Positions 2,075 to 53,369 of a stretch of 64,000 nucleotides of DNA are shown piece after piece. Both the position numbers and the translations under genes were made by a program. Below the pieces are notes generated by a model, which saw only the letters and a list, made by a program, of their open reading frames with translations, was not told the DNA's origin and did not search any database. The DNA is from an uncultured Actinomycetes bacterium (lineage in GTDB: Bacteria; Actinomycetota; Acidimicrobiia; IMCC26256; DASPTH01), in assembly GCA_963705625.1 (NCBI GenBank), contig CAVPKG010000004.1:613018-677017 (forward strand), written 5' to 3'. Position 1 is the stretch's first letter, and each line of letters starts with the position of its first letter.

Positions 2075-2280
2075 GGGTCGAGTATCACGCCCCTGCCCTC
2101 GATGCGACGAGTCGGAACGCAACCCGCGCAGCGATGCAACTGGACACTCCCGAGACCGTTGCAGTGCCGAGCTGCGCCACTCCCCGTAGGTCGCCCAGGC
2201 TTCGGCTGACCACATGCACGGCTCGGTCGGATGTCGTTGGCCACGACGAGCGTCGCTTGGTTTACTGACGATGTCCGGAC

Positions 2281-3192
2281 ATGCCCGGCGAGGGGAGTGC
2301 TGTGGGTAGGCGCACCGACTCTGGGAAGGGCTCCGTGCGCTCGCCGAGTGACGACGCCGAGCCGAGGATCACCGTCGATCCGTCGAACAGACCCGCGTAC
2401 GACGAAGCGCTGCGCGACTTCTACCACCCTCACTATCACGACGAGAAGGCGACGCCTGCTCGCCGAGCCGCCGAACGAGTCCTGCCGATCGTGTTCTCCG
2501 TCATTGATGTGAGATCGATCGTCGACGTGGGTTGCGGCCCCGGCAGCTGGCTCGCGGTGGCACGCCACATGGGTGTTCGAACCTTGACCGGCGTCGAGGG
2601 CGAGTGGGCCCTCGACTGGTTCGGACCGGATCGCGCCGCCCCTGGCGACTTCGACCTCGTCCTCGCGAATCTCGAAGACGACCTATGTCTTCCCCGAACC
2701 TTCGACCTCGCGATCTGCATCGAGGTGATCGAGCACCTCAGCCCGGCCCGGGGAACGTCGTTTGTCGCCGACCTGTGTCGTTGTGCTCCGCACGTGCTGT
2801 TCGGTGCGGCGATCCCCGGTCAGCGAGGTCCCAACCACTTCAACACTCGATGGCTCTCGCATTGGGCCGCGTGTTTCGCCGCTCACGGGTACCAACCGCT
2901 GGACGTCATACGGCATCGCGTGTGGGGAGACGACGAGCTGCTGGTGCACTACCGACAGAATCCCATCCTGTTCGTGCGCGACGACGCCTACGAAGCCGCG
3001 GTCAGGCGGGCGCTCGCGCTGCCTCCGCCACCGCTGGCAGCGCTCGATCAAGTCCATCCGTGGCTCTACACGCTGCGATCGAACGAGTCGCGCGCCGCGG
3101 CGGCCCCCGGCCTCGGGCACCGCATCCGGCTCGCCGCGGGCATCCCGGGCGCGGCACTACGGCGACTGTGGGGGCCCGGTTCGCGACCCTGA
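2281..3192 (+). CDS. Class I SAM-dependent methyltransferase
   Basis: Intact 303-aa ORF. The SAM-binding motif I is IVDVGCGPGSW, followed by DLAICIEVIEHL. The true start may lie downstream of 2281. Confidence 0.75.
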   Translation: MPGEGSAVGRRTDSGKGSVRSPSDDAEPRITVDPSNRPAYDEALRDFYHPHYHDEKATPARRAAERVLPIVFSVIDVRSIVDVGCGPGSWLAVARHMGVRTLTGVEGEWALDWFGPDRAAPGDFDLVLANLEDDLCLPRTFDLAICIEVIEHLSPARGTSFVADLCRCAPHVLFGAAIPGQRGPNHFNTRWLSHWAACFAAHGYQPLDVIRHRVWGDDELLVHYRQNPILFVRDDAYEAAVRRALALPPPPLAALDQVHPWLYTLRSNESRAAAAPGLGHRIRLAAGIPGAALRRLWGPGSRP

Positions 3193-3248
3193 CCCACGGG
3201 AACAACGCCGTTCAGGAAGTGGCGATCCAGGTCCGGCAGCCGCCCGAC

Positions 3249-5036
3249 TCAGGACAACGGGACGTCGCCGCCACCGTTCGCCTTCGCGATGAAGCCGTCG
3301 GGGTTCGATGTGCCGGCCTGCCCGGGTCCGCCCTGACTCGGGCAACCCGTGCAGTCACCGACGTACTTCGGTGCCGGTGTCGGCCGCGTGTCGAACTCGT
3401 CGACCGACGTCTTCTTGTCGAACCAGCCGAACTGCTTCTTCGGAACGGTGCTGCTCTTGTATCGCTTCGCCCCGTCGGCGTACCACGCCACGCCCTTGCC
3501 GTCGCTGCCGGTGCCCTGCGACGGTCCCGAGGTGTCCGGATCCCACCACACTGGTGCGAAGTCGAGCCCCGATGTGAGGTACTCGTCGTAGGGCAGGCCG
3601 GCCGTCCTTCCGTATCCGCTCAAGCTGCCCGTCGGGTAGCCCTGGGCCGCTCCACCCGACGCCGGGATCGAGAAGAGACCTTGTCGGAAGGTCTTCGGTG
3701 TGAGACCGGGACCGGCGGCCTGGATTCCCGTGAGGAGCCAGGTGAGATGCCCCGGCGTCGCGCTGGCGGATGTTCCGACGGTCTCGCCCCAGTACCAGTT
3801 GAGCGGATTCGTCAACACGGTCAACGACTTCTGCGGCGGCGCCGGCGTCGGATCCGGCAACACCCACGGCGACACGCTCGACAACCCGAACGTGTGCGCG
3901 GACTGCTCGACCGGATAGGCGCGGGCGAGGAGCGCGAGATCGTGATACACGGTGCCGGTGAAGAACCACTCCGGGTACCACTCCTGCCGGGTGGCGTTGT
4001 CCATGAGCGCCTTCGTCATGGCGACATCCGTGAAGAGGATCACGGTGGTGACGCCGGCCTCCTTCATCTTCGTTGCGATGACAGGTGCCTGCTCCTCGGC
4101 GGACGTGGCGTCGCCGCGCGGCGACCCGTTGGCCGTGTAAGGAGACTCGCTCGCAAGCGTTGCGCCGTACTTCTTCAAGTCACTCGTGAGTTGCGCGATG
4201 TCGATGACGCCGTCCATGTACACGGTTCCGAACCTGCGGGTCTGCTGTTGGATATCGGTACTGCCGGCAAACTCTGCCAACTTGTGGGTGAGTTGCTTGC
4301 CGACGACCACGGACGCGTTGACCGCCGCTGCTTGCGCGTCGGTCAACCCCCACCGGTAGGGCGCCTGCGCGAGCGCCTTCTTCGCCGTCGTCGCGTAGCC
4401 GAATACCAGGATCTTGGCCTTCGCCATCTCCGAATCGAGGACGTCGAGGCCGGCTGGGACGAAGTTGATCACGGCGAAGGGCTGTTCCGCCTTGATCGCC
4501 ACCGCGTCCGCGCGTTGCGCGGCCTCGTCGTTGCCGGTCGATACCAGGAACCTCATCTCGATGTCGCGGCCCCATGTCTCGTAGTACTTCATCAGCGGAA
4601 GGAGGTAGTCGTGCACCGCATCCTGGTACGTTCCGCGCGTATTGCCCGCTCGGTTGGTTGGCGCAGTGCCGCCGGGGCTGTTGATCTGCTCGTCGTTCGG
4701 CACGACCGCGAAGACCTTGATGGTGTTCTTGGTGACACCGGGGGCAGTGGCGCCTCCGTTGTTCGCGCCGGCCTTCCACGGCTTCACGCAGACTGCACCG
4801 CCACCCACGACCGTCGAGTTGAAGCGGCCGTAGACGCCGTAGCTCGGGTCGCTGTGCGCGCACTTCGGGTTGTTGAGCGCCGCCGCGGTGCCGATCCCCG
4901 ATCCCGGCGTGGGCTTCGCGGCTCCAGGCGGCAGGTCGACCGCTGCCGCCGCCGGCAGCACCGCGGCTCCGCACAGGGCGACGATCGCTGCGGCCGAAAC
5001 GACGAGACGCGACGCGAGACCTCTCCGATGACTCAT
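3249..5036 (-). CDS. Secreted periplasmic-binding-protein-type solute-binding protein (ABC substrate-binding-like, type I PBP fold), no transporter partners nearby
   Basis: ORF 3249..5075, with the start placed at the internal MSHRRGLASRLVVSAAAIVALCGAAVLPAAAA signal peptide (ATG 5036). The body has alternating beta-alpha segments (IKVFAVVP, ILVFGYA, VTTVILFTD) as in Leu/Ile/Val-binding-type proteins. Family assignment is by resemblance only. Confidence 0.5.
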   Translation of the reverse strand: MSHRRGLASRLVVSAAAIVALCGAAVLPAAAAVDLPPGAAKPTPGSGIGTAAALNNPKCAHSDPSYGVYGRFNSTVVGGGAVCVKPWKAGANNGGATAPGVTKNTIKVFAVVPNDEQINSPGGTAPTNRAGNTRGTYQDAVHDYLLPLMKYYETWGRDIEMRFLVSTGNDEAAQRADAVAIKAEQPFAVINFVPAGLDVLDSEMAKAKILVFGYATTAKKALAQAPYRWGLTDAQAAAVNASVVVGKQLTHKLAEFAGSTDIQQQTRRFGTVYMDGVIDIAQLTSDLKKYGATLASESPYTANGSPRGDATSAEEQAPVIATKMKEAGVTTVILFTDVAMTKALMDNATRQEWYPEWFFTGTVYHDLALLARAYPVEQSAHTFGLSSVSPWVLPDPTPAPPQKSLTVLTNPLNWYWGETVGTSASATPGHLTWLLTGIQAAGPGLTPKTFRQGLFSIPASGGAAQGYPTGSLSGYGRTAGLPYDEYLTSGLDFAPVWWDPDTSGPSQGTGSDGKGVAWYADGAKRYKSSTVPKKQFGWFDKKTSVDEFDTRPTPAPKYVGDCTGCPSQGGPGQAGTSNPDGFIAKANGGGDVPLS

Positions 5037-5127
5037 CAGCGAGTCTTCCCCCGATGGACGCCTGTGCGTGCACACTATTGTCGGAGTGCGAGGGGTTCAG
5101 CGCACGGAGCGAACCGGGGGAGTCACC

Positions 5128-6354
5128 ATGGCGAAGCTCGCAGACGACCGGTACATCGTCATCTCGTCGGACTGTCACGCCGGCGCACCGATGCTCGAGT
5201 ACCGCGACTACCTCGAGGTGAAGTGGCACGACGAGTTCGACGCGTGGGCCGCGGCGTACGAGAACCCGTTCGACGACCTGCGCAGTGCCGAGGCGTATCG
5301 CAACTGGGACTCGGCGCGTCGGCAGCAGGAGCTCGAAGGCGACGGGGTCGTCGCCGAAGTGCTGTTCCCGAACACCGTCCCGCCGTTCTTCCCCACGGGC
5401 CTCTTGGCGACGCACCAGCCCACCACGCGCGACGACTACGACCACCGGTTCGCCGGGATCCAGGCACACAACCGGTGGCTCGCCGACTTTTGTGCGGAAA
5501 CGCCCGGACGTCGCGCCGGGATCGCGCAGATCTTCCTCTACGACGTCGACGATGCGGTCGAGGAGGTCAAGCGAGCGCGGGAGGCGAACCTCTTCGGTGG
5601 CGTCCTGCTCCCAGGCGTGGCCCCCGACTCCGGTCTTCCACCCCTCTACGTGCCGGACTACGAGCCGATCTGGGCGGTGTGCGAAGACCTCGGCATGCCG
5701 ATCAACAATCACGCGGGACAGGCCGCACCCGACTTCGGCAGGTACAAGGCATCGACCGCGGTATTCATCATCGAGCTCAGCTGGTTCTCGCACCGCGTGT
5801 TCTGGCACCTGCTGTTCGGCAACGTGTTCTCCCGCCACCCGAACCTGAAGCTCGCGCTCACCGAGCAATCCTCGGGCTGGGTACCGAGCGTCCTCGCCAT
5901 GCTCGACTCGCAGTACAACCGGTTCCAGACACCCGGCACCGCCGAGTTCCGGATCGCCGGGGCACTCGCGGCAGAGATGGGCATCTCGCCCAGTGAGACC
6001 TGGGCGTGTAACTGCTTCCTGGGTTCGAGCTTCCTCCGGCCGAGCGAATGTGAGCTGCGCTACGACATCGGTGTCGAGAAGATCATGTGGGGCCAGGACT
6101 ACCCGCACACCGAGGGCACCTACCCGTACACGCGCGAGGCGCTGCGCAACACGTTCGAAGGCGTTCCCACCGACGAGATCGCGGCAATGCTCGGCGGGAA
6201 CGCGGCCGAGGTGTACGGATTCGATCTCGACGCGCTCGCAGCCGTAGCCGCGCGCGTCGGCCCCACGGTCGACGAGATCGCGGTTCCCCTCGACGAGATT
6301 CCGGCCGACGCCTACTCCGTGGCGTTCACCGGCGAACAAGCCAAGCCCTGGTAG
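5128..6354 (+). CDS. Amidohydrolase-2 family metal-dependent hydrolase/decarboxylase (ACMSD-like)
   Basis: Intact ORF. The start is placed at MAKLADDRYIVISSDCHAG (ATG 5128). Motifs are SDCH near the N-terminus and WGQDYPHTEG near the C-terminus. It is a paralogue of 7162..8486. Confidence 0.8.
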   Translation: MAKLADDRYIVISSDCHAGAPMLEYRDYLEVKWHDEFDAWAAAYENPFDDLRSAEAYRNWDSARRQQELEGDGVVAEVLFPNTVPPFFPTGLLATHQPTTRDDYDHRFAGIQAHNRWLADFCAETPGRRAGIAQIFLYDVDDAVEEVKRAREANLFGGVLLPGVAPDSGLPPLYVPDYEPIWAVCEDLGMPINNHAGQAAPDFGRYKASTAVFIIELSWFSHRVFWHLLFGNVFSRHPNLKLALTEQSSGWVPSVLAMLDSQYNRFQTPGTAEFRIAGALAAEMGISPSETWACNCFLGSSFLRPSECELRYDIGVEKIMWGQDYPHTEGTYPYTREALRNTFEGVPTDEIAAMLGGNAAEVYGFDLDALAAVAARVGPTVDEIAVPLDEIPADAYSVAFTGEQAKPW

Positions 6355-6361
6355 CCCGCCT

Positions 6362-7108
6362 CTACCGGTACTGCACGGTGACGTGCTTCGCGTACTCCTT
6401 GGCGTCGATCTCGACGTCCTCGAGCACGTGGTAGTAGTCGGTCGAGATCATCATGAGGCGGGCCCCCTCCTGCTGGAGGACGGGCAGGTCCGCGACCGGC
6501 GTGCCCGGGAGATCGCGCAGCACGAGCTTGCCTTCGACCTTCTCGCACGACTCCGGCTTCACGGTCTGGTGCAGCGTGATGAGGAACGGTCCGGCGTCGA
6601 AGCCCTCACCCGACACCGCGGGCAGGAACTTGTACCAGAACTGCACCACCTCGTACGGCTCTGGCGTCGGGAGCTTCTCGGTGACGTCGCCGACGACCTC
6701 GATGATGGTGACGCCCTGGCGCGTGACGCTGGCACGGATGTGGTCGCCTTGGCGCTCGCATTCCATCTGCGCCAACTTCTTCGGCTCGCCGTAGGTCTCG
6801 CGGCTCGGCGTGACCGCGGTCTCGAGGTCGATCGGCATCACTGCGCAGAACTGGCCGAGCTGGTCACCGTACATCGCGTCGAGCAGGAACGAGCAGACGA
6901 TCTCGTGCAGCTTCCCGTTGATCTCGATTCGGGTGAAGTGCACGCGGACGCGGGGCTCGGGCGGCGCGGTGAGCGGCGGCGGCAGCACCGCCGCGTGGAT
7001 CTCGGGGTCGGTGAGGTACGTGACCTCGAGCCTCGCGTTCGCCGGGAAGGGCACGACGGACGCGCCTTCGCCCCGGCGGGGCTCCTGGATCCAACGGTTC
7101 TCGGCCAT
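6362..7108 (-). CDS. Acetoacetate decarboxylase (ADC)-family protein
   Basis: This is the 248-aa C-terminal part of ORF 6362..8341, starting at MAENRW (ATG 7108). The LTDPEIHAAVLPPPL and GEPKKLA segments and the size are typical of the ADC-like beta-cone family. Confidence 0.6.
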   Translation of the reverse strand: MAENRWIQEPRRGEGASVVPFPANARLEVTYLTDPEIHAAVLPPPLTAPPEPRVRVHFTRIEINGKLHEIVCSFLLDAMYGDQLGQFCAVMPIDLETAVTPSRETYGEPKKLAQMECERQGDHIRASVTRQGVTIIEVVGDVTEKLPTPEPYEVVQFWYKFLPAVSGEGFDAGPFLITLHQTVKPESCEKVEGKLVLRDLPGTPVADLPVLQQEGARLMMISTDYYHVLEDVEIDAKEYAKHVTVQYR

Positions 7109-7161
7109 GAACACTCCCTGTTTGTCGGTACGAATGAGGTGCGCTGCTACTTGCCGAACGC

Positions 7162-8486
7162 CTACTTGTCGGTGAGGAGGGCGCCCGCCTCCTCGCCCGT
7201 GAGCCATGGGCGGCCGACCTTCTTGTACGGCTCCCACTTGGCGAACACCGACTCGTCGGTCTGCCCGAGGTCTTCGGGGGTGGGGCCGATCCGGTCGGCG
7301 ATGGGCTGGAGCTTCTCGAGGTCGAAGCCGTAGAAGTCGACCTGGTTGAGCCCGAGGATCTGCTCGGTCTCGTCGACGGGAATGTCCCAGAACCGGTTCT
7401 TCAGGAACTCCCGTGTGTACGGCCACGTGCCTTCGGGGTGGGGGAAGTCGTTGCCCCACATGATGTTGCCGACGCCGATCTCGTAGCGGCGCCCGAGCTC
7501 GCGGCGGCGGACGTTCGACGAGCCGATCTTGACGTTGCGGTCGAAGTACTCGCTCGGCAACATCGTGAGCGATCCCGCGCGTGTTGACCATCTTGCGCAT
7601 GCCGTGCTCGCGCGTCGCCATCATGTCGACCCGCCACAGCAGGTCGGCGGCCCAGTAGCTCCCCGCTTCGGTGACCGCCATCTTCAGCGTGGGGAAGCGC
7701 TCGAACACACCGGTGAGCAACATGAACCACAGCGGACGCGCGGTGAAGAAGATCGTCTCGTACCCGTAGACGCTCATCCAGCCGCTCACGTCGCCGTAGT
7801 CCTCGTGCGCGGCGGGACCCGAGTGGCAGTGCACCGGCAGCTGCAGCTCCTCGCACACCGCCCACACCGGGTCGTAGCGGTAGCTCGTGTACGACTCGTG
7901 ACCACCCCATCGCGGCGGGATGATGATGCCGCCGGTGAGGCCCTCTCCGTGCGCGCGGCGGATCTCGGCGATCGCACCGTCGAGGTCGTCGAGGATCGGC
8001 GCGACGATCAGGCCGGCGCGGCGCTCGGGGCTGTCCTGACACAAGCTCGGCCGCCCAGCGGTTGTACGCGCGTGCGCCCGCGAGCAGATGCTCCGGATCT
8101 GTCGTCGCGATCGGGTTGAAGCCGGCGCCGAAGGGTGCGCCCATCGTGCCGGTGGCAGCGTCAGGACCCGGAAACACCACTTCGCCGGCGACGGCGTCGT
8201 TGTCGAGCTCCTGGTCGCGGGTCGCCGCATCCCACCCGCCGCGGAGGCCGATCTCGTGGAGGCTGTTGCCCTCTTCGTCCTCGCCGAACCACTCTTCCTT
8301 GAACTCGTCGTCGCCGATGAAGTTCCCGGCGCCGCCGGCACCGGCGCGCCGCTCGTCGATGATCCGTTGCCGCTCGGCGAGCTCCTCGTCGAAGTCGTCG
8401 AGGTACTGCGGGTCGAGGTAGTCGCGGTACACGGGGGAGTTCGGTCCCGCGTGGCAGTCGGCCGAGATGACGACGTAGTGCTTCAA
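7162..8486 (-). pseudogene. Amidohydrolase-2 family hydrolase, two frame changes (near 8045 and 7570)
   Basis: Joins fragments 7401..8534 (KHYVVISADCHAG...), the middle of 6362..8341 (...GGIIIPPRWGGHESY...VHCHSGPAAHED...) and 7162..7563 (...MWGNDFPHPEGTWPYTREFL). The start is proposed at TTG 8486, preceded by a G-rich patch. Confidence 0.75.
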
Positions 8487-9031: not shown

Positions 9032-11772
9032 CTACCGCGAAATCGCGGCGCGAGCGAGCGCCACGAGGTCCCTGTCGGCCATCCCTTCGGCGCGTCGCCC
9101 CGCTTCGGCGAGCTCCGAACTGCTCGCCTGTGCGAGGACCCTCGCGTACGCGTCCACGGCAACCGAGAGCCCAACGGTCGAGTAGGAGGTCGCGTCGAAC
9201 TCAATTCCCTGTTGATCCGCCCACGCTCCGAGAATCAGTGCCGGCTCGTCGGCGTGCAACACGGCGAGAACAAGCGAAAGGGACCGGAGCACGATGTTCC
9301 GAGAATTGCGGTCACCGGCCCATATCGCGCGTTCAGCTGCCGCGACGAGCGTTTCCGACGCAGCCCGGTAATCACCCTCGGCAGCCTGGACAATGGACAA
9401 GCTCTGCATCGCAAAATCCGTTGCGTACTGATGACGCACGCTCAACGCGTACGCGGCCGCCTCCTCGAGACAGCGTCGGGCGCGTTTGGCGTCGGTGTGG
9501 CTGACGACCCTCGCGAGCAGCAGCAACGAGAACGCGAGGCGCGATGGGTTACCAGTTTGGCGTGCACACTGGAGTGCTTCCTCGCTCGCGGTGATGACAC
9601 CCTCGGGTGCGCGCCACGAGCGCAGGTTCAAGGCTTCGGTGAGGAGGTAGGGATCGCCGAGTCGACGGGCCTCGACCACCAACTCTTCGCTGATCTCCAT
9701 CGTGCGGTCCGCGTTGACGGACCACGAGCTCAGCGCGCTGCAGAGTGCGCCCAACGCGGTGCACCGTGCCACCAGGCGATCGAGATCGCCGGGCAAGCGG
9801 CTGGCCGCCGCAACGGCCGCTTCGCCGAGTGCGATCGCGCGTTCCGGACCGGCAAGGCGCGCGCTGAACGACGCCGACGCAAGGGCGATGGGGCGTAGAA
9901 CGTGGTCCGACGCGCCCGGCATCGCGGCGGCCTCCTCGGCGAGCGCACCGAAGGGGTTGCCGACGGCGCTCGCCGAGATCGTGAGCGCGGCGACACACCG
10001 CAACGCGAGGTCGGTCTCGCCCGCGTTGATCGCCCATCGCAGCGCGGTCTGCAGGTTGTCGAGCTCCACCTCGACCCGGTCGACCCACTCGGGCTCGTCG
10101 GGCCCGCGCAGCCCGACACCGGCGTCCTCGGCGAACGATACGAAGTATTCGGCGTGGCGTCGCGCCGGCGCCTCGGCGTCACCGGACTCCTCGAGCCGTT
10201 CCCACGCGTAGTCGCGGATCGTCTCCAACAGCCGGTACCGTGTCTGGGTCTCACCCGGTTCGGCGACAACCAGAGACTTGTCGACGAGCCGGCTGAGCAC
10301 GTCGATCACGTCGAGCACGTCGAGATCGGCACCCGCAGCGAGTGCCTGGGCGGCGGCGAGGTCGAAGCTTCCCGCGAACAACGAGAGTCGATGGAGCAGG
10401 ACACGCTCGTCGTCGTCGAGCAGCTCGTACGACCAGTCGACCGCGTTGCGCATCGTCTGATGACGGCTCACGGCGGTGCGGCGGCCGCCGGTCAGCATCC
10501 GGAAGCGCCGATCCAGGTGCGCCGCGATCTCCGCCGGGGTCATGGATCTCCGGCGCGCGCCGCGGCCAGCTCGATGGCGAGCGGGATGCCATCGAGTCGC
10601 CGGCACAGCACCGCGACGTCGTGCAGCTGCTCGTCGCTCGTCGACGTGCCCCCGGTCGCCTCGCCGCGCGCGCCAGGAACAGTTGCACGGCATCCGATGC
10701 CAGCAACGTGTCGCGGTCGGCGTCTGCACCGGGAAGCGCGAGCACCGGCACCGCGAAGACCCGCTCGCCGCTGATTCCCAAGCCCTCGCGGCTGGTGGCG
10801 AGCATCTTCAGCCGGGGTGCAACCGCCAGCGCCTCTTCGACGAAGGACGCGGCGCGGGCCACGAGGTGCTCGCAGTTGTCGAGGACGAGGACGAGCTGCT
10901 TGTCACGGAGATGGTCCAACAAGCTCTGACGCATCGTCGCGCCCTGGCGCTGCTCGACTCCGAGCACGGCCGCGACGCCGTCGTCGAAGAGCTCCTCGTT
11001 CCCGACGCCCGCCAGCTCCACCAGCCACGCGCCATCTCGATAGTCGGTGATGGCGTCGACTGCGAGCTGCACCGCAAGCCGCGTCTTGCCCACCCCGCCG
11101 ACTCCGGTCAGCGTCACCAGCGGGAACTCCTCGAGCGCTGCGGCGACTTCGGCGAGCTCCCGTGCGCGGCCGATGAACCGGTCGCGCGGCATCGGCAGAT
11201 TCCCGAGCAATCCGCCGATCGTTCGCACCGCGGGGAACTCGTCGGCGAGTCCCGGCGCGGATATCTGGTACACGCGTTCCGGGCGTGAGAGATCACGGAG
11301 ACGATGCTCTCCGAGATCGACGAGCGCTGCGCCCTCGGGCAGCAGGTCGCGCGACCAATTCCTCGGTCGCACGCGACACCAGTACTTGCCCGCCGTTCGC
11401 CACGCTCATGATCCGCGCGGCACGGTTGAGCGCCGTGCCGTAGTAATCGCCGTCGCGGTACTGGGCCTCTCCGGTATGGATGCCGATGCGTGCGAGCAGC
11501 GGACCCGTGACCCCCCATGGTTCCGCCGCGAGCGCCAGCTGTGCAGCAACCGCGGCATCGATCGCGTCGCGCGCCGTGGAGAACGCGGCGTGGAAGCCGT
11601 CACCCCTCGTCTTCACCACATGACCGCGATGGGTCTCGATCGCGTCACGGATGACAGCATCGTGACGCGCGAGCGCGCGTTGCATCTCGTCGGGCTGTTC
11701 CTCCCAGAGCCGCGTCGAGCTCACCAGATCGGTGAACAGGAATGTGACCGTCCCGGAGGGCAACTCGCTCAA
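9032..11772 (-). pseudogene. Class III adenylate/guanylate cyclase fused to STAND (NB-ARC-like) ATPase and helical-repeat domain; at least 3 frame changes
   Basis: Fragment 11293..11772 carries the cyclase motifs (FLFTDLVSSTRLW, KTRGDGFHAAF). Fragment 10251..11372 carries the P-loop TLTGVGGVGKTRLA and Walker B LVLVLDNCEH. Fragment 9032..10729 carries the winged-helix-like and TPR-like repeats. Frame switches fall near 11360 and between 10540 and 10660. Confidence 0.75.
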
Positions 11773-16653: not shown

Positions 16654-19327
16654 GACGTCATTGTGGGTCGAGCGTCGAGGTCGGTGCGAGCACGATCGGC
16701 GTCGTCGAGCGCCCGCTCGAGCTCGGCGCCGAGCGTCGTCACGTAGGGGCGTCGCACCATGCTGTCGTGGTTGCCGGGCACCTCGATCGCGGTGACCGGA
16801 CCGCGCGCGAACGCGGACCAGCCGAGGTCGGCCTCGAAGGGCGAGTCGGCGACGCGCGTCACCAGGATCGGAGCCGGCCAACGTCGACGCCGGGTGGTAC
16901 GCGCGGGTCATGCGGCGCGCGTAGCGGAAGAAGAGGTGGTACTGGTGCAAGCTCCGACGTGGCACGATGCCCGCGGTCGCGAGCCGCGATTCGTTCCCGA
17001 GCGTGGAGTTGCGCGGCGCGGGCGGCCCAGCGCACTCTGGCTCGTCATGCCCGGTTTGTCGCGCCGGCTGCGCTCGCCGCCAGCCGTTCGCCCCGGCGTC
17101 AACATGACACTCGGGGCCGGTGTGTCGAGGACGGCAAGGAGCGCGACGCACTCGCCAGCCGCTTCGAGCACGCATGCCATCTCGAAGGCGACGAGGCCTC
17201 CGTACGAGTAGCCGGCGAGGAGATAGGGACCGGTCGGTTGGATGGCGCGGATCTCGGCGAGATGGCGCCGCGCCGCGGCTTGGATGCTGCGGTCGGGTCG
17301 AGCCGTCTCCTCGAGGCCTCGCGCCTGCACGCCGTAACACGCCCGATCGTCACCCAAGGCAGTCGGCGAGCGGCCGGAGCGACACCGCGGGGGAACCGCC
17401 GCCGGCCACGCAGAACAGCGGCGTCGACCGGGTCTCCGCCGGTCGCACTCACGAGCGCGACGACCGTTGCCGCGGTTCGCCGGCGACGCACCAGTCGAGT
17501 CGCGAGCGCGGTCACCGTCGGCGACGCGAGCACCGCGGTTGCCGACAGCTCGACGCCGAAGCGCTCGTTGATGCCGGCCAGGAGCTCGAGCACGGCGAGC
17601 GAGTCGCCGCCGAGCTCGAAGAAGTCGTCGTCGAGACCGACGTCGTCGAGGCCCAGGACCTCACCGAACAGCTCGGCGAGCTCACGCTCGCGTCCCGACC
17701 GGCTCGCGATAGGGACGAGCCGCCGGAGGCGGCGGGGGCAGGGAGCGACCGCGCGATCGATCTTGCCCCGCGCCGTGAACGGAAGGGCCTCGACCAGCAC
17801 GACTGCGGCCGGGATCATCGTCGACGGAAGGCGGGTGGCGAGGTCGCGGCGGATCTGCCACGCGCTCGGCGTCGCACCGGCGTCGGGGACGACGTACGCC
17901 GCGAGCCGAGTGCCACCGTCGGGCGCCGGGACCGGGACCACCGCGGCGCGCTCGACACCGTCGACGCCGGTCAGCGCGCGCTCGACCTCGCTCGGGCTCA
18001 CCATCGCACCGCGCACCTTCACTCGGTCGTCGGCGCGCCCCAGGTGTTCGAGCACGCCGTCGGGACGCCGACGGACGATGTCGCTCGAGCGGAACCCGCG
18101 CCGACCGTCGGGCAGCGTCGAAGAAGTACGCGGCCGTCAGCAGCGGATCGCGCCAGTAGCCCAGCGCTTGATGGTCGCTGACGACTTCGAGCGTGCCCGG
18201 CTCACCGTCGGGAACGTCGTCGCCGTCGTCACCGACGATGCGAACGTCGACCCACGGTTCGACCCGGCCGATCGGGAGCGGCCCGTCGTCCGCGTCGTCG
18301 GCCGCGGTGACCTCCCACGCCGCGGGCGACGCACCTTCGGTTGCGCCGAGCCGGTTCTGGAACACGGTGCGCGGGGCCGAAGCACGGGTCGGGCGCGTCG
18401 CACGTCCTGCGAGTAGAGCGTCTCTCCGCCGAGCGTGATCAGCTTCACGCTGTCCATGCGCGCGTCGGGCGCGACATCGACCAACGCGCGCAGCACCGAC
18501 GGCACGAGTTGCAGGACGGTGATCCGCTGTGCGGCGACCCACGCCGCGAAGTCTCGCAGGCCTTCGCTGCGGAGGTGGCCGGGACACGCGGTTCCACCTC
18601 CGAAGAACGCACCGAGCCCGCGCGACGTACGCGCCGACGAACCCGAACGAGCCCGTGATCGCCACGCGGTCGTCCGGCCCGATGTCGTTCGCGTAGGCCA
18701 CCACGAGGCCGTGGCGGACGAGCGTGTCGTGGTCGCGCACGACGCCCTTGGGTGTGCCGGTCGAACCCGACGTGAAGAGCACGAGGGCGAGGCGTGCCGG
18801 GTCGACGTCGGGCAGCTCACGGTCTGGCGCAGTTGGCGTACGACGTCGTGGAGCTCGACGATCGGTGTGCCCACGGCGATCGCTTCGGCGATCGTGCACG
18901 GTGGAGCGGTGGGTGAGCACGAGCGACGCTTGCCCTTCCCGAGCCACGAACGCGAGTCGCTCGACCGGGTCGTGCGCGTCGAGCGGGATCGCCACCCGAC
19001 CGGCGGTCATCACGCCGAGGACCGAGACGATCCCGTCGATTCCGCGATCGACGACGACCGCAACCTGGGCCCCGCCCGGTCGGATCGTTGGCGTCGACGG
19101 CGCGCGCGACCGCGCTCTGTCGCGCGCAGCAGCTCGGCGTAGGTCAGGCGGCGTTCACCGTCGTCGATCGCGATCCGATCCGGCACCGCTGCCGCCACTT
19201 CGCGGAGCGCGTCCGGTATCGATCGGACGCGCGGCTCGCCGAGCACGGGGCTTCGGAGCCACGGTCTACCCTCGACGCCGGGAAGATCACCCCCGCGCGC
19301 GTCCGCGTCGGTTCGCACTTCGATCAC
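16650..19327 (-). pseudogene. Single-module NRPS-like enzyme, adenylation - peptidyl carrier - thioesterase (A-PCP-TE); at least 6 frame changes
   Basis: Joins fragments 19010..19327, 17682..19013 (LVLFTSGSTGTPKGV), 18137..18874, 17099..18055 (VKVRGAMVSPSEVE; carrier motif FFELGGDSLAVLEL), 16908..17357 (TE GYSYGG) and 16650..16862 (GNHDSM). The intact paralogue at 1..1150 shows where the frames break. Confidence 0.8.
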
Positions 19328-19359
19328 GGTACAGCGGCGGCCGGAGTAAGTTCGCCGCG

Positions 19360-20142: not shown

Positions 20143-20899
20143 TCAGCGGGCGGTCCAGCCGCCGTCGACGACGAGCACGTGGCCGGTGCAATAGGTGGAG
20201 GCGTCGCTCGCGAGGAAGAGGAGAGCGCCGTCGAGCTCGTGCAGGGCGCCGAAGCGTCCCATCGGGCAGTTGCGGGTGATGTAGCGGCTCGAGCCCTCGT
20301 CGGCGATGACGGGGTCGGTGATCTCGGATGGAAAGAAGCCGGGTGCGAGCGCGTTGACCCGCACGCCGTTGCGTGCCCACTGGCACGCCAGCTCTCGGGT
20401 GAGGTTGATGACGGCACCCTTGGACGCGCAGTAGGCACTCGAGGGAAACGGTGTCGACGCGACGAGACCGTTGATCGATGCGACGTTGATGACCGAACCG
20501 CCACCCCGTTCGATCATCTCCCGAGCCGCCGTGCGAGCGAGATCGAACAGTCCGACGAGGTTGACGTCGAGCACGTACCGGAAGTCGTCCAGGGACTCGT
20601 CGAGCGCTCGCGCGGTCACGCCGTGGCCCGCGTTGTTCACCAGGATGTCGACGCTGCCGAAGCGCTCCGAGCGCGGCCGTCACGATGCTCCGGACCTGCT
20701 CGCCGTCGGTCATGTCGGCCGTCACCGGCACGACGCCGGGACACTCCTCGGCAAGCGCCTCGAGGTGCGCGGTCCGGCGTGCCGCGGCCACGACGTGTGC
20801 CCCCTGCTCGTGGAGGACCTGGGCGAATCGACGACCGAGGCCGCTCGAGGCGCCGGTCACGATCGCGACCCGGCCTTCGACCGAAAACAGGTTGTCCAT
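20143..20899 (-). pseudogene. Short-chain dehydrogenase/reductase (classical SDR); one extra base near 20667
   Basis: Joins fragments 20084..20899 (VAIVTGASSGLG) and 20143..20640 (NNAG, YCASKGAV). Removing one base restores ...TAALERFGSVDILVNNAG. Confidence 0.8.
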
Positions 20900-22664: not shown

Positions 22665-23153
22665 GTGGGCCCCCTCAATTCCACGCGCCCGAAGGGCGCC
22701 CGGCGTGGCATATCGCTCGTTGCCGCGGTAGCGCTGCCCGCGATCCTGCTCGCCGGCCCCGCGGCGCCGGTGGCGCGAGCCCTGCCGGCTGACGGGCGGC
22801 CCGTGAAGGTCACGCTCGAGGACTTCTCCGTGAAGGCGTCGCAAGCGACGGTGCGAGCAGGAACCGTCGTGCTGCACATCCACAACGCGGGGCCCTCGAC
22901 GCACGAGATCAACGTGGACCGGACGAACGACGCCGCGAGTGAGCTCCCGCTCAAGGCGGACGGGCTGACGGTCGACGAGGACGATCCGAGCTTGCGCCGG
23001 ATCGACTCGATCGAAGAGCTCGATCTCGGGACGACGGGCGACCTGACGCTCCGGCTCCAGCCCGGGCACTACGTCTTCTATTGCAACCTCGAGGGTCACT
23101 ACCTCGGCGGCATGCACGCGGCGCTGAACGTCGTCGCCCGAGGTAAGTCGTGA
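22665..23153 (+). CDS. Secreted cupredoxin-domain protein with a predicted type-1 copper site
   Basis: Signal peptide GISLVAAVALPAILLAGPAAPVARA. The ligand pattern is HNAGPSTHE ... YCNLEGHYLGGM (Cys-x4-His-x4-Met). Its TGA overlaps the GTG of the next gene (23150-23153). Confidence 0.7.
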   Translation: MGPLNSTRPKGARRGISLVAAVALPAILLAGPAAPVARALPADGRPVKVTLEDFSVKASQATVRAGTVVLHIHNAGPSTHEINVDRTNDAASELPLKADGLTVDEDDPSLRRIDSIEELDLGTTGDLTLRLQPGHYVFYCNLEGHYLGGMHAALNVVARGKS

Positions 23154-26118
23154 ACACGCGCGCACGGTCCCGCTCCTTCGGCACCGCGATGCGCCGCGAC
23201 TCGAAGCTGGTGCTCGTCGTCGGCGCGTTCGTCGTCCTCGTCGGCGGCATGGTCGGCTACAACGCCTGGACGACAGACCAGGAGCGGCCGACGGCGCTCG
23301 TCGTCGATGTCACGGCGCGGCAGCGCACGCTGGTGGAGCGATACATCAAGGACGTCGTCCTGAAGCTCGACGGCGTGCAAGCCGACCCGAGCCCGAGTGC
23401 GACGATCCTGCGCGAGACCGCGGACGCGCTGCTCGTCGGTGGGAACGTCGTCACGCCGCAGGGAAGTCTCGATCAACGCGTCGAGATCCCGGCTGCGCGC
23501 GGTCACGCAGTCCGGTTGAAGCTCGATCACGAGCGCAAGCTGATCCGGGAGCTGCTGGCGCGCGGCGACGCGCTCCTCGCTGCCGGTCGGACCAGCCCGA
23601 CGTTCGAGCGAGATCTGCAGGGGCTCCGCGTGGTCGGCGCCGAGCTCTCGAGCGTCACCGGTGACGCCGCGGGCGAGATCACCAAGCAGGCGCAGCACTC
23701 GCTCTCCCGGCTCGTGCTCGTCGAGATCATCCTCGGCATCGCCTCGGTGCTGCTGGCGCTGGCGATGGCCTGGCTGCTCCGACGCGCTGCGCAACGCGAA
23801 TCGGCTCGATTCAAGTCGCTGGTCCACAACTCCACCGATCTGATCACCGTGCTCGACCGGAGTGGCGTCGTTCGCTACCAGAGCCCTTCGTCGGCGCGGA
23901 TCCTCGGAGTGGACGCCGACGAGCTGGTCGGCACGACGCCTCACGAGTCTGGTGCACGCCGACGAGACCGCGGAGCTGGCCGACACACTGGCATCTCTCA
24001 CGCGCCAGCCCGGCGCGACCGCTCAGGTGAAGTTCCACGTGCGGGGCCAGGACGGCGAGTGGCGGATCATGGAGGGAGTCGCGACGAACCTGCTCGGCGA
24101 CCGCAACGTGCGCGGCATCGTCCTGAACTCGCGAGACGTCACCGAGCGCGAGCAAGCCGCGATCGAGCTCGCGAGCGCGCGCGACCGGGCGCTCTCAGCC
24201 TCGAAGACGAAGAGCCAGTTCCTCGCCTCGATGAGCCACGAGATCCGAACGCCGATGAACGCGATCATCGGATTGAACGGACTCCTCCTCGAGACCGACC
24301 TCGACGCCGAGCAGCAGGAGTTCGCGCGGGGCGTGCAGACGTCGGCCGATGGTCTGCTGAACATCATCAACGACATCCTCGACTTCTCGAAGGTCGAGGC
24401 GGGCAAGCTCGAGCTCGAACACGTGGACTTCGACCTCGGTCTGCTCGTCGAGGACGTCACCGACGATGCTCGCCGACGCCGCGCACGCGAAGGACGTCGA
24501 GCTGCTCGCGCACTTCCCGCCCGACCTTCCCCCTGCCGTGCGGGGCGACCCGACTCGTGTCCGCCAGATCCTGCTCAACCTCGCCTCCAACGCGGTGAAG
24601 TTCACGTCGACGGGGGAGGTCGTCGTGCGCGCGCGCACGCTCGACGAGACCGCCGATCACGTGCTCGTTCGCTTCGAGGTGCGCGACACCGGGGTGGGGA
24701 TCTCGCCGGACGACCTCGAGCGGCTGTTCGAGCCGTTCTCCCAGGCAGACTCGTCGACGACACGGCGTTACGGCGGCACCGGGCTCGGGCTCGCGATCGT
24801 CAAACAGCTCGTGGAGCTCATGCACGGAACCATCGGCGCCGAGAGCCGAGTGGGGGTCGGCAGCACCTTCTGGTTCGAGCTCCCCTTCGACAAGCAGTCG
24901 CACGGTCCAGCCCGCGCGCGCCGGTGTCGAGGAGCTCGTCGACCTGCGCACGCTGATCGTGGACGACAACGCGACGAACCGGCTCATCCTGCGTGAGCAG
25001 CTCGGGTCCTGGGGGATGGTCGCCGACGACATCGGACCATGCCGATCCTGCGCTCGAGCTCCTCCGCGACGCGGCGCGTGCAGGGACTCCCTACGACATC
25101 GTGCTGCTCGACCTCAACATGCCCGACGTCGACGGGTTGCAGCTCGCGCACGTCATCAGCTCGGATGCGACGCTGCGGAGCGCTCGCATGTTCCTCCTCA
25201 GCTCGTCGGGCGAGTTCCCCAGGACGAAGCAGCCGCGGCCGGGCTGGTCGCCACGCTCACCAAGCCCGTACGCCCGTCGGAATTGTTCAACTGCCTGGTG
25301 GGAGGACTCACCATGACCGACATCGCCGAGTGCCGACTCCGGCGCGCGGCCGGGCCGAGCGACCGCTCGCGCCGTGGCCGACTCCTGCTCGTCGAGGACA
25401 ATCCGACCAACCAGCTGGTCGCGACGCGGATGCTCGTCGAAGCTCGGCTTCGACGTCGACGTCGCGCGGAACGGCCGGGAAGGCGTCGAGGCGAGCGCCG
25501 CGACCGAGTACGGCGCCATCCTGATGGACTGTCAGATGCCGGAGATGGACGGATACCAGGCGACCGCGGCGATCCGTCGCCGGGAAGGCGACACGCGCCA
25601 CACGCCGATCATCGCGATGACGGCTGCGGCGATGGAGGGCGATCGCGAGGTGTGCCTGGCGGCCGGTATGGACGACTACGTGTCGAAGCCGGTCCGCACC
25701 GACGCGCTCGTCGAGACGCTCGACCGGTGGATCGGCGACGACGATCCGTCCCGGCGCGTCGACCCGGCTGTGCTCGACCCCGAGCGCTTCGACACCGTGC
25801 GCGAGCTCGACGACGGTGACGGCGTCATGCTCCGGGAGCTGTCGGCGGCGTTCCTCGCCGACGCCTCGTCGCAGCTCGACCGATCTGCGCGAGGCCGCCG
25901 CCGAAGGTGATCCCGAAGTGATCGAGCGAACCGCACACGCCTCAAGGGTGCGGCCGCGTCGATCGGCGCGGTCGACTCTGGCCGAGCTCTGCGCGCAGCT
26001 CGAGGGTCTCGGCACGCGGCCGCGTGCTGCGCGACACGCGGCCGTGATCGTCGCGAAGATGGACGCCGAGTTGGTACGCGTGCGCGATGCGCTCGAGTCT
26101 GCCGTGCCGACCGGGTGA
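23150..26118 (+). pseudogene. Hybrid sensor histidine kinase (NarX/PilJ-like periplasmic domain, TM, PAS, HisKA, HATPase, REC, REC, HPt); about 8 or more frame changes
   Basis: Joins fragments 23150.., 23862.., 24466.., 24959.., 24993.., 25374.. and 25816..26118. Motifs seen are [61 protein letters not shown], and RLKGAAASIG in a shifted frame. Confidence 0.8.
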
Positions 26119-27071
26119 CCGACATGCGCGTGTCTGATCGCCGACGACGACGCGACCTGCCGGCTCGTGCTGCAGAAGACCGTCGAGAAGCTCGGTCACG
26201 AGTGTGTCGTCGCGAGCGACGGGTACGCGGCGTGGCGCGAGTTCGAGCGGGCACCGACCGACGTGTTGATCACCGACTGGATGATGCCCGGGCGTCGACG
26301 GTCCGGAGCTGTGCCGCCGGGTCCGCGAGCGCGCCGACGACGGGTACACCTACGTCATCCTGGCGACCGCGCTCGGAGCGCCACGAGCATGTCCTCGAGG
26401 GCATGGAGGCCGGCGCCGACGACTACCTCACGAAGCCGATCGCGCCGTTCGACCTGCGAGACTCGGCTCATCGCCGCCCGACGCGTGACCGAGCTGCACA
26501 AGCAGGTCGCGCGGTTCCACGGCGAGCTCGCGCGGCTCAACGGGAGCTCGCAGAACAAGCGCGGACGGACCCGCTGACCGGTCTCGGGAACCGTATGCGT
26601 CTCCACGAGGACCTGAGCGCGTACGCACGATGCGCGCCGTGCGGCTACGACCGCCGGTACTGCTTCGCGATCTGCGATCTCGACTAGTTCAAGCGATACA
26701 ACGACACCTACGGCCACATCGCAGGTGACGAGGTGCTGCGGCGCGTCGGCGGTGTCCTCGCGAACGAAATGAGGCCCGAAGACAGCGCGTATCGTTACGG
26801 AGGAGAAGAGTTCGTCGTTCTGCTTCGCAACACCTCGCTCGACGACGGCCTGGTCGCGATGGAACGGCTCCGGCGCGCGGTGGAGAACCTCGGTATCCGC
26901 CACGATCATGCTGCATCGCCTGGACTCGTGACGATCAGCGTCGGCATCGCGGCACTCGACCCACGTCGGGACGGCACGCCCGACACCCTCTTGGCGCGTG
27001 CCGACGAGGCGCTCTACCGGTCGAAGCGCGACGGCCGCAACTGCACGAGCACGAGCGAACGCGCGGAGTGA
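26115..27071 (+). pseudogene. Response regulator-diguanylate cyclase (REC-GGDEF); several frame changes plus an in-frame TAG at 26685
   Basis: Joins fragments 26115.., 26167.. and 26733..27071. Motifs are VLITDWMMPG, GADDYLTKP, DPLTGLGNR, ICDLD-TAG-FKRYNDTYGH and YRYGGEEFVVLL. Its GTG overlaps the kinase TGA. Confidence 0.8.
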
Positions 27072-29393
27072 TCAGCGCAAGCGGAGTGTCACCGCCCAGC
27101 GTCCGCCATCCCAAGTTGCCCCGGTCTTGGCAACGTTCGTCGTCGTGAAGGTGACGCTCGACTTGTTGTTCGGCACCGTCACCTTGTTGGCCGAGGTCGA
27201 GCAGTTCCCCGACGCAGAGGTCGTGCAGGTACGTGTCGTGGTCGCGCCGCCGGTGACGGCGAACGTGACCGTCGCCCCGGCCACGGGATGACCGTTCTGG
27301 TCGGCCACGCTGACGTCGACCCACGAGGTCCATGAGAACCAGCCGGTTTGCCCGGATCCGGTGAGCCGGGTGATCGACATCACGACGGTGGGCGTCACGT
27401 TGTTGACATTCACTTGGACCGCGTCCGAGGTCGTGGTGTTGCCGACGCCGTCGGTCGCGCGTGCGGTGATCGTGTGCGTACCGTTGCCGACCGTGGCGGT
27501 GTTCCAGGTCGCCTGATACGGCGCGGTGGTGTCGGTGCCGACGACGCTGCCGTCGACCAGGAGCTGCACCGACGCGACGCCGCTACCCGGTACCGGGTCA
27601 GAGCTGTCGGCGGTGATCGTGATCGTTCCCGACACTGTGCCGGCGGCGGGAGCGATGACCGCTGCGGTCGGTGCCGTGTTGTCCACCGCAACGGCGCGCG
27701 TGTCGCTGCTGCTGAGACCAGCAGTGTCGAACGCGGTGGCGGTGAGCGTGTGCGCGCCGTCGCCTGCGGTCGCCCAACTCACCGCGAAGGGAGCGGTCGA
27801 GTCGCTGCCGATCGGTGTCGCGCCGTCGAAGAAGTCGACGTGCGCGATCGCCACGTTGTCGGTCGCATCGGCAGTGACGCTCACGGTCCCGTGCAGCGTC
27901 GCGCCGCTCGTCGGTCGCGGTGAGGCTCACCGACGGAGGCTCGGTGTCGACGGGCGGGGGTGGCGGCGGCGGAGGCGGGGGCGGCGGAGGCGGCGGAGGC
28001 GGAGGGGGTGGTGGTGGCGGAGCGGCACCGGCGGCTTGCGCGGCGCGCAACGCGTTGACGAGCGGCTCGGGAATTCCGTCCTTGTCGGGCGAGCTCCCGA
28101 ACAGTCCGCTCACCTGCCACTGCCCATGACCGGCGCACGTGGTCGCGTTCGCAACGCTGCCGTCCGGGCACTCGCCGGTCGACTCGAGGATCGCGCGCAC
28201 CTGGTCGGGCGACAGGCTCGGGTTGGCGCCGAGCACGAGCGCCGCCGCGCCGGCGACATGGGGGGCCGCCATGCTCGTGCCACTGAGGGTCACCTGCCCG
28301 CCGTCGATCCAGTCGGACAGGATGTGCACGCCGGGTGCGGCGACGTCGACCACGGAGCCGTAGTCGCTGAAGTCGGCGAGATTGTCGTCGCACTGGTAGC
28401 CGTACTCGCTGAAGTCCATCTGACAGCCGGCGAAGCTGCGCTGGCCGTCGAAGTCGGTGAGCGCCGACACCGCGATGACTTCGTCGTACGACGCGGGTAC
28501 GAAGCTCGCGGCGTCGGTTCCGTCGTTACCGGCGGCGGCAACCACGGTCACGCCCGCGCCGTGAGATTGCAGATCGCCTGGTGCAATGCGCTCGATGCGC
28601 ACGTCGTCTCGCCCGGCCGGTTGGGATCACCGAGGCTCATGTTCACGACATAGGGCCCGGGTTGCACCTCGGCGAGCGCCGGCGACGTGGTCGAGCCCAC
28701 AGATCACCTGCGCGTCGGTCCCGTAGCCGGTGGAGTTCAGCACCTTGACGGGAACGAGCTTGGCGTCCGTCGCCATGCCCACGACGCCTTGCCCGTTGAA
28801 CGCGGCCGCGGCCGTGCCCGGCGACGTGCGTGCCGTGGCCGTGATCGTCGTTCGGAGGCTGCCCCGGGTCGATGCAGTTGATGCCGTCCGCCGTGTCGAG
28901 GTTCTGCGCGAGGTCGACGTGGTCGAGCTTGATGCCGGTGTCGACCACGGCGATGTGCACCGGCGTTCCGCCGCTGGTCACGCCGCGGTAACCCGCTCCG
29001 TGAGCGGCCCAGGCGCTCGTTCGCAGGATCCCGTTCGGCGCGATCTCGACCGCGTGCACGCCCCTCGCCACTTCGACGCGGGCGACGCGCGGGTTGCGGG
29101 CCAGCGCGGCGGCCGCGTCGGCCGAGCCGGAGAACGCGAAGCCGTCGAGAACGTGGGAGTAGACGCCGAGCAGCCGGCCGCCTTGTTGGCGAGCGAGCGT
29201 GGGCGCCGTGCTCGACGGATCGACGTTGCCCTTCAGGGTCACGATCCACGTCTGCGTCGGCTGGGCTCGCGGTCGCTCCCGGCGCAGCGGCGGCTCCGGC
29301 TCCGCCCGTACCGAACGCACTGGCGACGACGGCGAGGATGGTTGCGCCCGCCAGCGTGAGCCGCCGCTTCGGTGACCAATGGCGTGTCCGCAT
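27072..29393 (-). pseudogene. Secreted subtilisin-like (S8) serine protease with I9 propeptide, polyproline linker and C-terminal Ig-like domains; about 5 frame changes
   Basis: The signal peptide MRTRHWSPKRRLTLAGATILAVVASA is in fragment 28737..29483. The catalytic triad is VAVVDTGI, HGHGTHVAG and GTSMAAPHVAG. The Ig-like repeats (VDNTAPTAAV..., ATDGVGN) are in 27072..27884. Switches fall near 29290, 28816, 28678, 28556 and 27921. Confidence 0.8.
27952..28020 (-). repeat. Run of 23 consecutive proline codons (CCN) inside the S8 protease
   Basis: I counted codon by codon on the plus strand as 23 successive NGG triplets, flanked by AAGAA and VDTEPPSV on the protein. Confidence 0.9.
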
Positions 29394-29512
29394 CGCGTGC
29401 CCTCCGGTGAGGGCCCGCCCCGATGTGCAGCCACCATCCGTCATACAGAAGGTGTGGCCTCGCGGCAACCCAAAGTTCGGCAAGGTTCCGGCGTGGCGCT
29501 ACGTTCGTGCGC

Positions 29513-53357: not shown

Positions 53358-53369
53358 GAGAAGGATTCG

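Follow-up and report, generated by a model that had tools for sequence, protein, structure and literature searches.

The window analysed here, that is, the whole stretch of DNA with a length of 64 kb, carries on its + strand, between positions 22665 and 27071, three consecutive genes coding for a cupredoxin, a hybrid histidine kinase and a REC-GGDEF diguanylate cyclase, as recognised by the reading of open reading frames (ORFs) and by Pfam searches. At 23150-23153 the letters GTGA contain both the TGA stop codon of the cupredoxin gene and the GTG start codon of the kinase gene, and at 26115-26118 a second GTGA overlaps the kinase stop codon with a GTG that is the possible start of the cyclase gene, for which an ATG at 26124 is the alternative. 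An initial annotation of this DNA had described three genes joined by these two overlaps, and the ORF reading bears it out. The features of the operon are the following:

22665..23153, + strand: cupredoxin gene, 162 aa, intact ORF (Pfam Cupredoxin_1; AlphaFold2, AF2; Foldseek)
22902..23114, + strand: codons of the four copper ligands H80, C140, H145 and M150 (invariance in the alignment)
23150..26118, + strand: hybrid histidine kinase gene (frameshift-aware alignment to the orthologues of loci L002 and L003; tblastn frame changes; Pfam on fragments)
23204..23803, + strand: sensor module, first transmembrane helix (TM1), ectodomain and second transmembrane helix (TM2) (AF2; structural matches; PilJ Pfam matches in relatives)
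23807..24156, + strand: PAS domain, split by a frameshift at about 23936 (Pfam PAS and PAS_4 on two frames)
24210..24891, + strand: HisKA and HATPase_c catalytic core, split by a frameshift at about 24462 (Pfam; corrected sequence)
24947..25721, + strand: two receiver domains, REC1 at about 24947-25300 and REC2 at about 25383-25721 (Pfam Response_reg on fragments; corrected alignment)
25755..26112, + strand: HPt domain (frameshift-aware alignment to the HPt of L003)
26115..27071, + strand: REC-GGDEF diguanylate cyclase (Pfam GGDEF and Response_reg; alignment to the orthologues of L003 and L005)

The product of the first gene matches Pfam Cupredoxin_1 with an E-value of 5.5e-7 (30 bits against a cut-off of 27) and shows the ligand pattern H80...C140-x4-H145-x4-M150 (codons 22902-04, 23082-84, 23097-99 and 23112-14), with the Cys-His-Met ligands on the C-terminal loop and the His-Cys-His-Met set complete. 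The ligands sit in two conserved loops, NxGPSTHE and YxxCNLEGHYLGGM, and they are invariant across 30 aligned homologues (alignment A1). The loss of ligands was looked for in orthologues and none has been lost, since all four are kept in 120 out of the 120 closest database homologues; across 43 diverse loci, with a mean pairwise identity of 46%, they are at least 90% conserved. In these loci the same degree of conservation is reached by the non-ligand residues N74, G76, P77, E81, N141 and G144 and by the insert D99-G100-L101...E105. The conserved residues round the copper site would fit what a docking surface might look like, at which the state of the metal could be read.

The AF2 model of the cupredoxin has a mean predicted local distance difference test (pLDDT) of 83, with values above 90 over the fold itself (residues 60-160), and its Greek-key beta-sandwich is matched by Foldseek with a probability of 1.0 to auracyanin, AcoP, azurin and laccase domains. 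The top Foldseek matches are auracyanin, the Cup domain of EfeO (7wgu), AcoP, small two-domain laccases and azurin; among solved proteins auracyanin B is the closest in sequence, with an identical C-x4-H-x4-M spacing. In NCBIfam the protein stays below the cut-offs of EfeO (30 bits against 270) and of CopI NF051440 (29.7 against 280). No His/Met-rich tracts are found in its sequence, and the protein falls outside the CopI family, which is characterised by His/Met-rich copper-capture regions (PMC13308877). A signal peptide is predicted at aa 1-39, its n-region containing RR and its cleavage motif being A-R-A, and the mature protein is a predicted type-1 copper domain. In 65 of the 120 homologues a lipobox takes the place of the A-R-A ending. 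A secreted cupredoxin with a complete type-1 ligand pattern, H...C-x4-H-x4-M, was what the initial annotation had proposed, and the intact ORF, the Pfam match and the invariance of the ligands confirm it, export being predicted.

The second and third genes are broken by frameshifts in the sequence as given, and their proteins were restored by frameshift-tolerant alignment to the orthologues of related loci. The corrected kinase has about 985 aa and consists of TM1, ectodomain, TM2, PAS, HisKA, HATPase, REC, REC and HPt. Pfam recognised on its fragments PAS, HisKA (9e-21), HATPase_c (1e-33) and two stretches of Response_reg; the HisKA H-box reads SHEIRTP, and REC1 and REC2 both retain the acidic pocket, the phospho-acceptor Asp, the Ser/Thr and the Lys. 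Pfam gave no HPt on the broken ORF of the window; once frameshifts were allowed, the segment aligned to the HPt protein of L003, with the motif AHxLKGAAASIGA, and Pfam Hpt was found in 9 of 34 orthologues. Kinase and HPt form a single protein in the window and in L005; in L003, an intact JGI orthologue, the HPt is a separate 122-aa gene (11091-11459) that overlaps the kinase stop by 8 nt. On the fragments of the cyclase, Pfam found Response_reg and GGDEF (2.7e-24), the active site being GGEEF (26799-26813) and the I-site RPED (RxxD; 26772-26783), five residues upstream. After frameshift correction every catalytic residue of the kinase and of the cyclase is in place. Thus, a kinase with PAS, HisKA, HATPase, two REC domains and an HPt domain, and a REC-GGEEF diguanylate cyclase, both claimed from the letters alone, are found again by Pfam on the fragments, by the corrected alignment and by the GGEEF and RPED motifs.

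Among the NCBIfam models, a kinase orthologue scores best against BarA, TorS and ArcB, in all cases below the equivalog cut-offs, and the kinase core of L003 gives a sub-threshold score against the NahK/ErcS model. A cyclase orthologue is closest to PleD (208 bits against a cut-off of 474), with a single REC domain compared with two in PleD. The kinase is therefore a member of the hybrid phosphorelay class and not of any named system; with the kinase, the cyclase and the cupredoxin all below the NCBIfam cut-offs, the operon as a whole belongs to no named system either.

The sensor part of the kinase comprises TM1 (about aa 19-40), an ectodomain (aa 41-195) predicted to be a four-helix bundle with a beta-hairpin, and TM2 (about aa 196-218). 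In the AF2 model of residues 18-217 (pLDDT 90.8), with helices at 18-73, 81-96, 119-145 and 152-217, TM1 runs into a long helix, which is followed by the short helix 2, a hairpin at 98-113, helix 3, and helix 4 that runs into TM2. The best full-length structural matches are NarQ sensor-transmembrane fragments (TM-score 0.54-0.59), with weak Foldseek E-values (0.04-0.2) of the kind that is usual for helical bundles. Chemoreceptors and kinases contribute further matches with their four-helix-bundle ligand-binding domains, and these structural neighbours include partner-dependent sensors, such as LytS-N with XylFII and QseE with QseG.

Pfam PilJ (PF13675), a family that includes the sensor domains of NarX and NarQ (PMC6381276), gives no significant match on the window protein (E=0.069 and 13.7 bits). 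The family passes its cut-off on the homologue P0150, which is 55% identical in the ectodomain (27.6 bits against 26.6), and it is matched at E<=1e-3 in 7 of 34 relatives. The alignment of the sensor profile by hhalign with a NarQ sequence that was not drawn from a database record gave a probability of 0.2, and a profile search of the PDB with the sensor returned just spurious matches to designed helical bundles. With no sequence-profile link to NarQ, the NarX-like label rests on the fold and on the Pfam matches in relatives. Of the "NarX/PilJ-like" periplasmic domain proposed initially, the predicted fold stands, through the NarQ matches, and so does the family in a homologue above the cut-off; the window protein itself stays below significance, at E=0.069. 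The motif VDVTARQRTLVERY is located in the ectodomain, at aa 52-65 of the kinase, and the motif of the ectodomain family on helix 1 is [VLI][ENDQ]V[AT]ARQRTL[AV]ERY. The family alignment contains no conserved His, Cys or Met, and for this reason it is unlikely that the ectodomain binds copper itself.

The association of the first two genes was followed in relatives, starting from 704 database relatives of the cupredoxin and from a scan of one genome per species, which added 49 further loci, all of them in metagenome-assembled genomes (MAGs). The loci of the scan belong to Acidimicrobiia (Ilumatobacteraceae, Microthrix), Thermoleophilia (Gaiellales, Solirubrobacterales) and other Actinomycetota. 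In each of the five relatives that were read on long contigs the cupredoxin gene is followed by kinase and cyclase genes, and the flanking genes differ. The first tblastn pass found the ectodomain and PAS directly 3' of the cupredoxin in 55 out of 55 loci; with L056-L059 and the window included, the ectodomain-PAS gene stands directly 3' in 57 of the 58 loci in which the cupredoxin match was usable. In 52 of these 58 loci the sensor frame offers a start codon at most 20 nt from the cupredoxin stop, 22 of them with 4-nt or 1-nt overlaps, and these gap figures are biased towards small values in that the start nearest to the cupredoxin stop was chosen.

The reverse search gave the same arrangement. 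An exhaustive phmmer search with the sensor returned 356 relatives at E<=1e-3 and 165 at <=1e-10. A cupredoxin with the full set of ligands is encoded directly upstream in the three cases that could be verified (3/3: P0178, P0193 and P0208; loci L056, L057 and L060), with outputs that differ. Besides, four over-extended sensor ORFs contain the out-of-frame translation of a cupredoxin gene, which confirms the adjacency. The gene-neighbourhood search for cupredoxin and kinase pairs that had been suggested at the outset thus finds the adjacency kept from both sides.

Two kinds of candidates were rejected in the course of this survey. The apparent cupredoxin-sensor fusions P0143, P0246, P0265, P0266, P0281, P0290, P0346 and P0350 are frameshift read-throughs or over-extended ORFs, and P0339 is a double-PilJ chemoreceptor with no cupredoxin. 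ORFs that are over-extended through the out-of-frame cupredoxin gene show a recurrent "ALLQHV.PL" string and are a trap for automated surveys of domain architecture. An OmpR-type regulator and a HAMP kinase are divergently encoded directly upstream of the cupredoxin in L001, L002, L004, L005 and L007 (about 5000-7800, - strand); this pair is limited to one Acidimicrobiia sub-clade, it is absent from the window and from most loci, and it was discarded as a general third component because it occurs in that sub-clade only.

Across the loci only the cupredoxin and the ectodomain-PAS part are constant, and at least five different outputs are found after the PAS domain: i) HisKA-HATPase-REC-REC-HPt together with a REC-GGDEF gene, as in Acidimicrobiia and in the window, ii) GGDEF or GGDEF-EAL fused directly after PAS, iii) a classical HisKA kinase, iv) a PAS-HATPase protein (CvnA-like ATPase) followed by a DUF742 gene, and v) in one case, a chemoreceptor followed by CheW. 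The pairing reported in the initial annotation is therefore conserved as an adjacency, with the refinement that the cupredoxin is consistently paired with the four-helix-bundle ectodomain and its PAS domain and not with the kinase as such. A unit that is kept together while the transmitter is interchangeable is the signature of a two-protein input module. Mere co-expression of the two genes fits poorly with this distribution, because outputs such as cyclic di-GMP (c-di-GMP) enzymes and chemoreceptors cannot regulate the transcription of the operon.

As to the less common outputs, the PAS-HATPase clade (L017 4365-7039; L021; L029; L059 732-3531) is without HisKA and recalls CvnA and CvnC of the actinobacterial conservons; immediately next to the PAS-HATPase and DUF742 genes of this clade, neither a roadblock gene nor a GTPase gene was observed. 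P0201 (JGI 3300043313, a contig of 2.5 kb) is an MCPsignal chemoreceptor with the ectodomain, and a gene of 108 aa is located 3 nt upstream of it.

The reading that we consider most likely, and on balance probable, is that the cupredoxin and the downstream four-helix-bundle ectodomain form a two-protein extracytoplasmic input module. The co-sensor function proposed in the initial annotation is supported in so far as the pairing is conserved and the ligands are kept, the role of the cupredoxin and the signal itself staying putative. In the mechanism that we infer, which extends to the protein-protein contact, the binding of copper, the identity of the signal and the direction of regulation, the exported cupredoxin, secreted in the window and lipid-anchored in about half of the relatives, would dock on the ectodomain, and the state of the type-1 copper site (oxidised or reduced, loaded or empty) would set the signalling state of the receptor. 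The phosphoryl group would then move along a relay made up, in this order, of the HisKA His, a REC Asp, the HPt His and the Asp of the REC-GGDEF protein, so that c-di-GMP synthesis would be switched on, limited by product inhibition at the RxxD I-site. Between redox sensing and copper sensing, the former appears somewhat more likely, because the full His2-Cys-Met site suits electron transfer and because no copper-handling genes recur in the neighbourhood.

Cupredoxins are the textbook electron shuttles. A more general proposal, which we put forward tentatively and would rate as possible, is that in this family the blue-copper protein receives a signal instead of carrying electrons, its copper centre being a redox or copper probe that is read by the ectodomain; the pair would then be a portable input to c-di-GMP turnover, phosphorelays, chemotaxis and conservon-type GTPase signalling in at least two classes of Actinomycetota.

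Several observations weigh against the co-sensor interpretation. Type-1 copper sites barely change their conformation on redox change and bind copper very tightly. A paralogue with two cupredoxin domains in tandem (P0009, 47% identical), encoded at 5001-5801 of L058, is not followed by a sensor gene and adjoins a divergently transcribed pair of OmpR-type regulator and kinase; this protein, the sole clear exception, may be a copper protein under regulation instead of a co-sensor. No natural fusion of cupredoxin and sensor was found among the eight of the top-150 phmmer matches that have extra N-terminal sequence, nor in P0143. The identities of cupredoxins and sensors are correlated in a mirror-tree comparison (r=0.81, a value that 0 of 2000 permutations reach), and this is discounted as evidence of contact because linked inheritance alone would yield it. 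As regards sampling, the genome scan used cupredoxin motifs, so the cupredoxin-first sample represents one subfamily, and all the relatives come from MAGs, with no cultured host. Finally, the Arg equivalent to the nitrate-binding Arg of McpN (R61) and NarQ is kept on helix 1, within the ARQRTLxERY motif, in 71 of 74 members of the ectodomain family (PMC6381276); the ectodomain may itself bind a small ligand.

This last residue speaks in favour of a different explanation, according to which the ectodomain would be a receptor of small anions, as NarX, NarQ and McpN are, and the cupredoxin an auxiliary protein that stabilises, localises or tunes it. The PilJ/NarX type of the domain and the rank of NarQ as its best full-length structural match agree with such a receptor. 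The N-box for nitrate, [IVL]-[ND]-x-A-G-x-Q-R-M-L-[ST]-Q (PMC6381276), is nevertheless matched by none of the 83 members of the ectodomain family, in which the contact positions are fixed as other residues (Gly to Ala, Met to Thr and Gln to Glu). The profile comparison described above gave no NarQ signal, and an anion receptor would leave the invariance of the four copper ligands and of the surrounding loops unexplained. We consider this explanation unlikely.

A comparably low probability is given to the idea that the cupredoxin simply carries electrons or handles copper, in the way of CopI, CinA or the Cup domain of EfeO, and shares the operon without taking part in perception; the sensor would in that case detect something else. 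The sub-threshold NCBIfam similarities to EfeO and CopI are in line with it, as are the full type-1 site, typical of electron carriers, and the paralogue of L058, which stands beside an OmpR-type regulator and kinase with no four-helix-bundle sensor, as two-component-regulated cupredoxins do. However, the pairing tracks the ectodomain and not the output, and persists where GGDEF-EAL or chemoreceptor outputs are unable to regulate transcription; none of the genes that recur in the neighbourhoods examined codes for a redox enzyme or for copper export; the protein is without the His/Met-rich tracts known from CopI (PMC13308877); and the two genes are tightly coupled in nearly all loci.

If the cupredoxin is indeed a co-sensor, the systems closest in logic are the partner-dependent sensors XylFII-LytS, QseG-QseE, TorT-TorS, LuxP-LuxQ and CpxP-CpxA, in which, as here, a small exported or lipid-anchored protein is encoded beside a kinase with a helical-bundle ectodomain. 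The ligand-binding domains of TorS and LytS are listed as four-helix-bundle relatives of PilJ domains (PMC6381276). In contrast to those systems, the partner in this operon is a type-1 copper cupredoxin, instead of a solute-binding or chaperone-like protein, one and the same pair serves kinase, cyclase, chemoreceptor and conservon-type outputs, and the contact between the two proteins is putative. H-NOX/HnoK and NosP/NahK offer another parallel, as the gene of a metalloprotein sensor lies beside that of a (hybrid) kinase, with a relay via HPt and REC to c-di-GMP enzymes. The H-NOX and NosP sensors are cytoplasmic haem proteins which act on soluble or cytoplasmic kinase domains, whereas here an extracytoplasmic copper protein would act, if at all, on a transmembrane ectodomain.

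NarX, NarQ and McpN have in common with this sensor the fold, the Pfam family and a conserved Arg-containing motif, which helix 1 places about equally far above the membrane. The differences are the lack of the N-box, the absence of HAMP, with PAS after TM2, the beta-hairpin between helices 2 and 3, and the apparently obligatory gene of the cupredoxin partner. Carriers of the auracyanin, azurin and plastocyanin type share with the cupredoxin the fold and the His-Cys-His-Met set, the C-x4-H-x4-M loop being that of auracyanin B. On the other hand, the identity to them is 21-26%, the segments NxGPSTHE and DGLTVxED are specific to this family, and the genomic partner is a signalling receptor instead of a complex of respiration or photosynthesis. 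Weak similarity in sequence and in structure (7wgu) is also shown by CopI and by the cupredoxin domains of EfeO and FtrB, all of them likewise extracytoplasmic, but the scores are far under the cut-offs, His/Met-rich capture regions are lacking and genes for iron or copper transport are absent next to the operon.

Partner-dependent membrane receptors are well known and, to our knowledge, none of them uses a copper redox protein. The novelty would thus lie in the class of the partner: a partner-dependent receptor with an unprecedented kind of partner. The initial annotation knew of no characterised example of a cupredoxin-kinase pair, and a full-text search of the literature, of incomplete coverage, found no published description either. 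Were a cupredoxin to act in signalling, the fold would gain a new use. A functional pairing could give the uncultured Actinomycetota that abound in soil (Acidimicrobiia, Thermoleophilia) a way to link extracellular redox or copper conditions, through c-di-GMP, to decisions on biofilm formation and motility. The system is tractable, as the proteins are small, the ligand residues are identified, intact orthologues exist (for example, the pair at 8001-11098 of L003) and the activities of kinase and cyclase are accessible to in vitro assays.

The frameshifts of the two signalling genes deserve separate attention. The kinase gene contains about nine single-base insertions or deletions (indels), near 23936, 24462, 24900, 25025, 25207, 25436, 25881, 25940 and 25977, and the cyclase gene about 6-8, at about 26133, 26287, 26377, 26459, 26542 and 26625-45, together with an in-frame TAG at 26685-87; by frameshift-aware alignment this makes about 17 frameshifts and one in-frame stop over 3.9 kb, mostly single extra bases. 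A Viterbi segmentation of the 64 kb based on the G+C content of third codon positions (GC3) gave 123 segments, with a change of frame on the same strand every 300-500 nt throughout, and the rate of frame changes in 35-49.6 kb is about the same as over the operon. The Pfam domains of the adjoining short-chain dehydrogenase (SDR) gene (20143-20899, - strand) and subtilase gene (27598-29437, - strand) are also split across frames. L001 and L002, which are one related locus in two assemblies, share 98.5% identity; the 42 indels between them over 6.5 kb are mostly single extra bases in L001, outside homopolymers, that break its kinase gene; the kinase gene of L002 is unbroken through the kinase core. 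Several of the related contigs belong to soil MAGs that were assembled from Nanopore reads alone and polished once with Medaka (PMC12313526).

The frameshifts of the window are almost certainly assembly errors and not biology, and the system is, as a consequence, presumably functional in the organism. The statement that both signalling genes are badly disrupted holds for the sequence as given and fails as biology, the disruption being window-wide and judged an artefact of assembly. That the kinase and the cyclase are true pseudogenes in a decaying locus, as the number of lesions in 3.9 kb would suggest if taken alone, is highly improbable in view of the equal density of frame changes over all 64 kb, unrelated neighbour genes included, of the intact catalytic residues, of the single extra bases by which two assemblies of one related locus mostly differ, and of the Nanopore-only origin of related contigs with one Medaka round. 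Any call of a pseudogene within the 64-kb window is unsafe, and it is of practical importance that regions of long-read MAGs such as this one carry dense artefactual frameshifts which resemble pseudogenes.

Regarding the surroundings of the operon, promoters, terminators, RNA families and tRNAs were sought within it and on either side with no informative result, and no Rfam families or tRNAs were found anywhere in the window. The segmentation left 1350-3204, 16870-17503, 18818-19347, 53040-53905 and 58421-58942 with no clear GC3 coding signal. Downstream of the cyclase gene and convergent with it, the - strand codes between 27072 and 29437 for a secreted subtilase (Peptidase_S8), also frameshifted, with a long poly-proline linker at about 27950-28050 and C-terminal bacterial Ig domains (Big_7).

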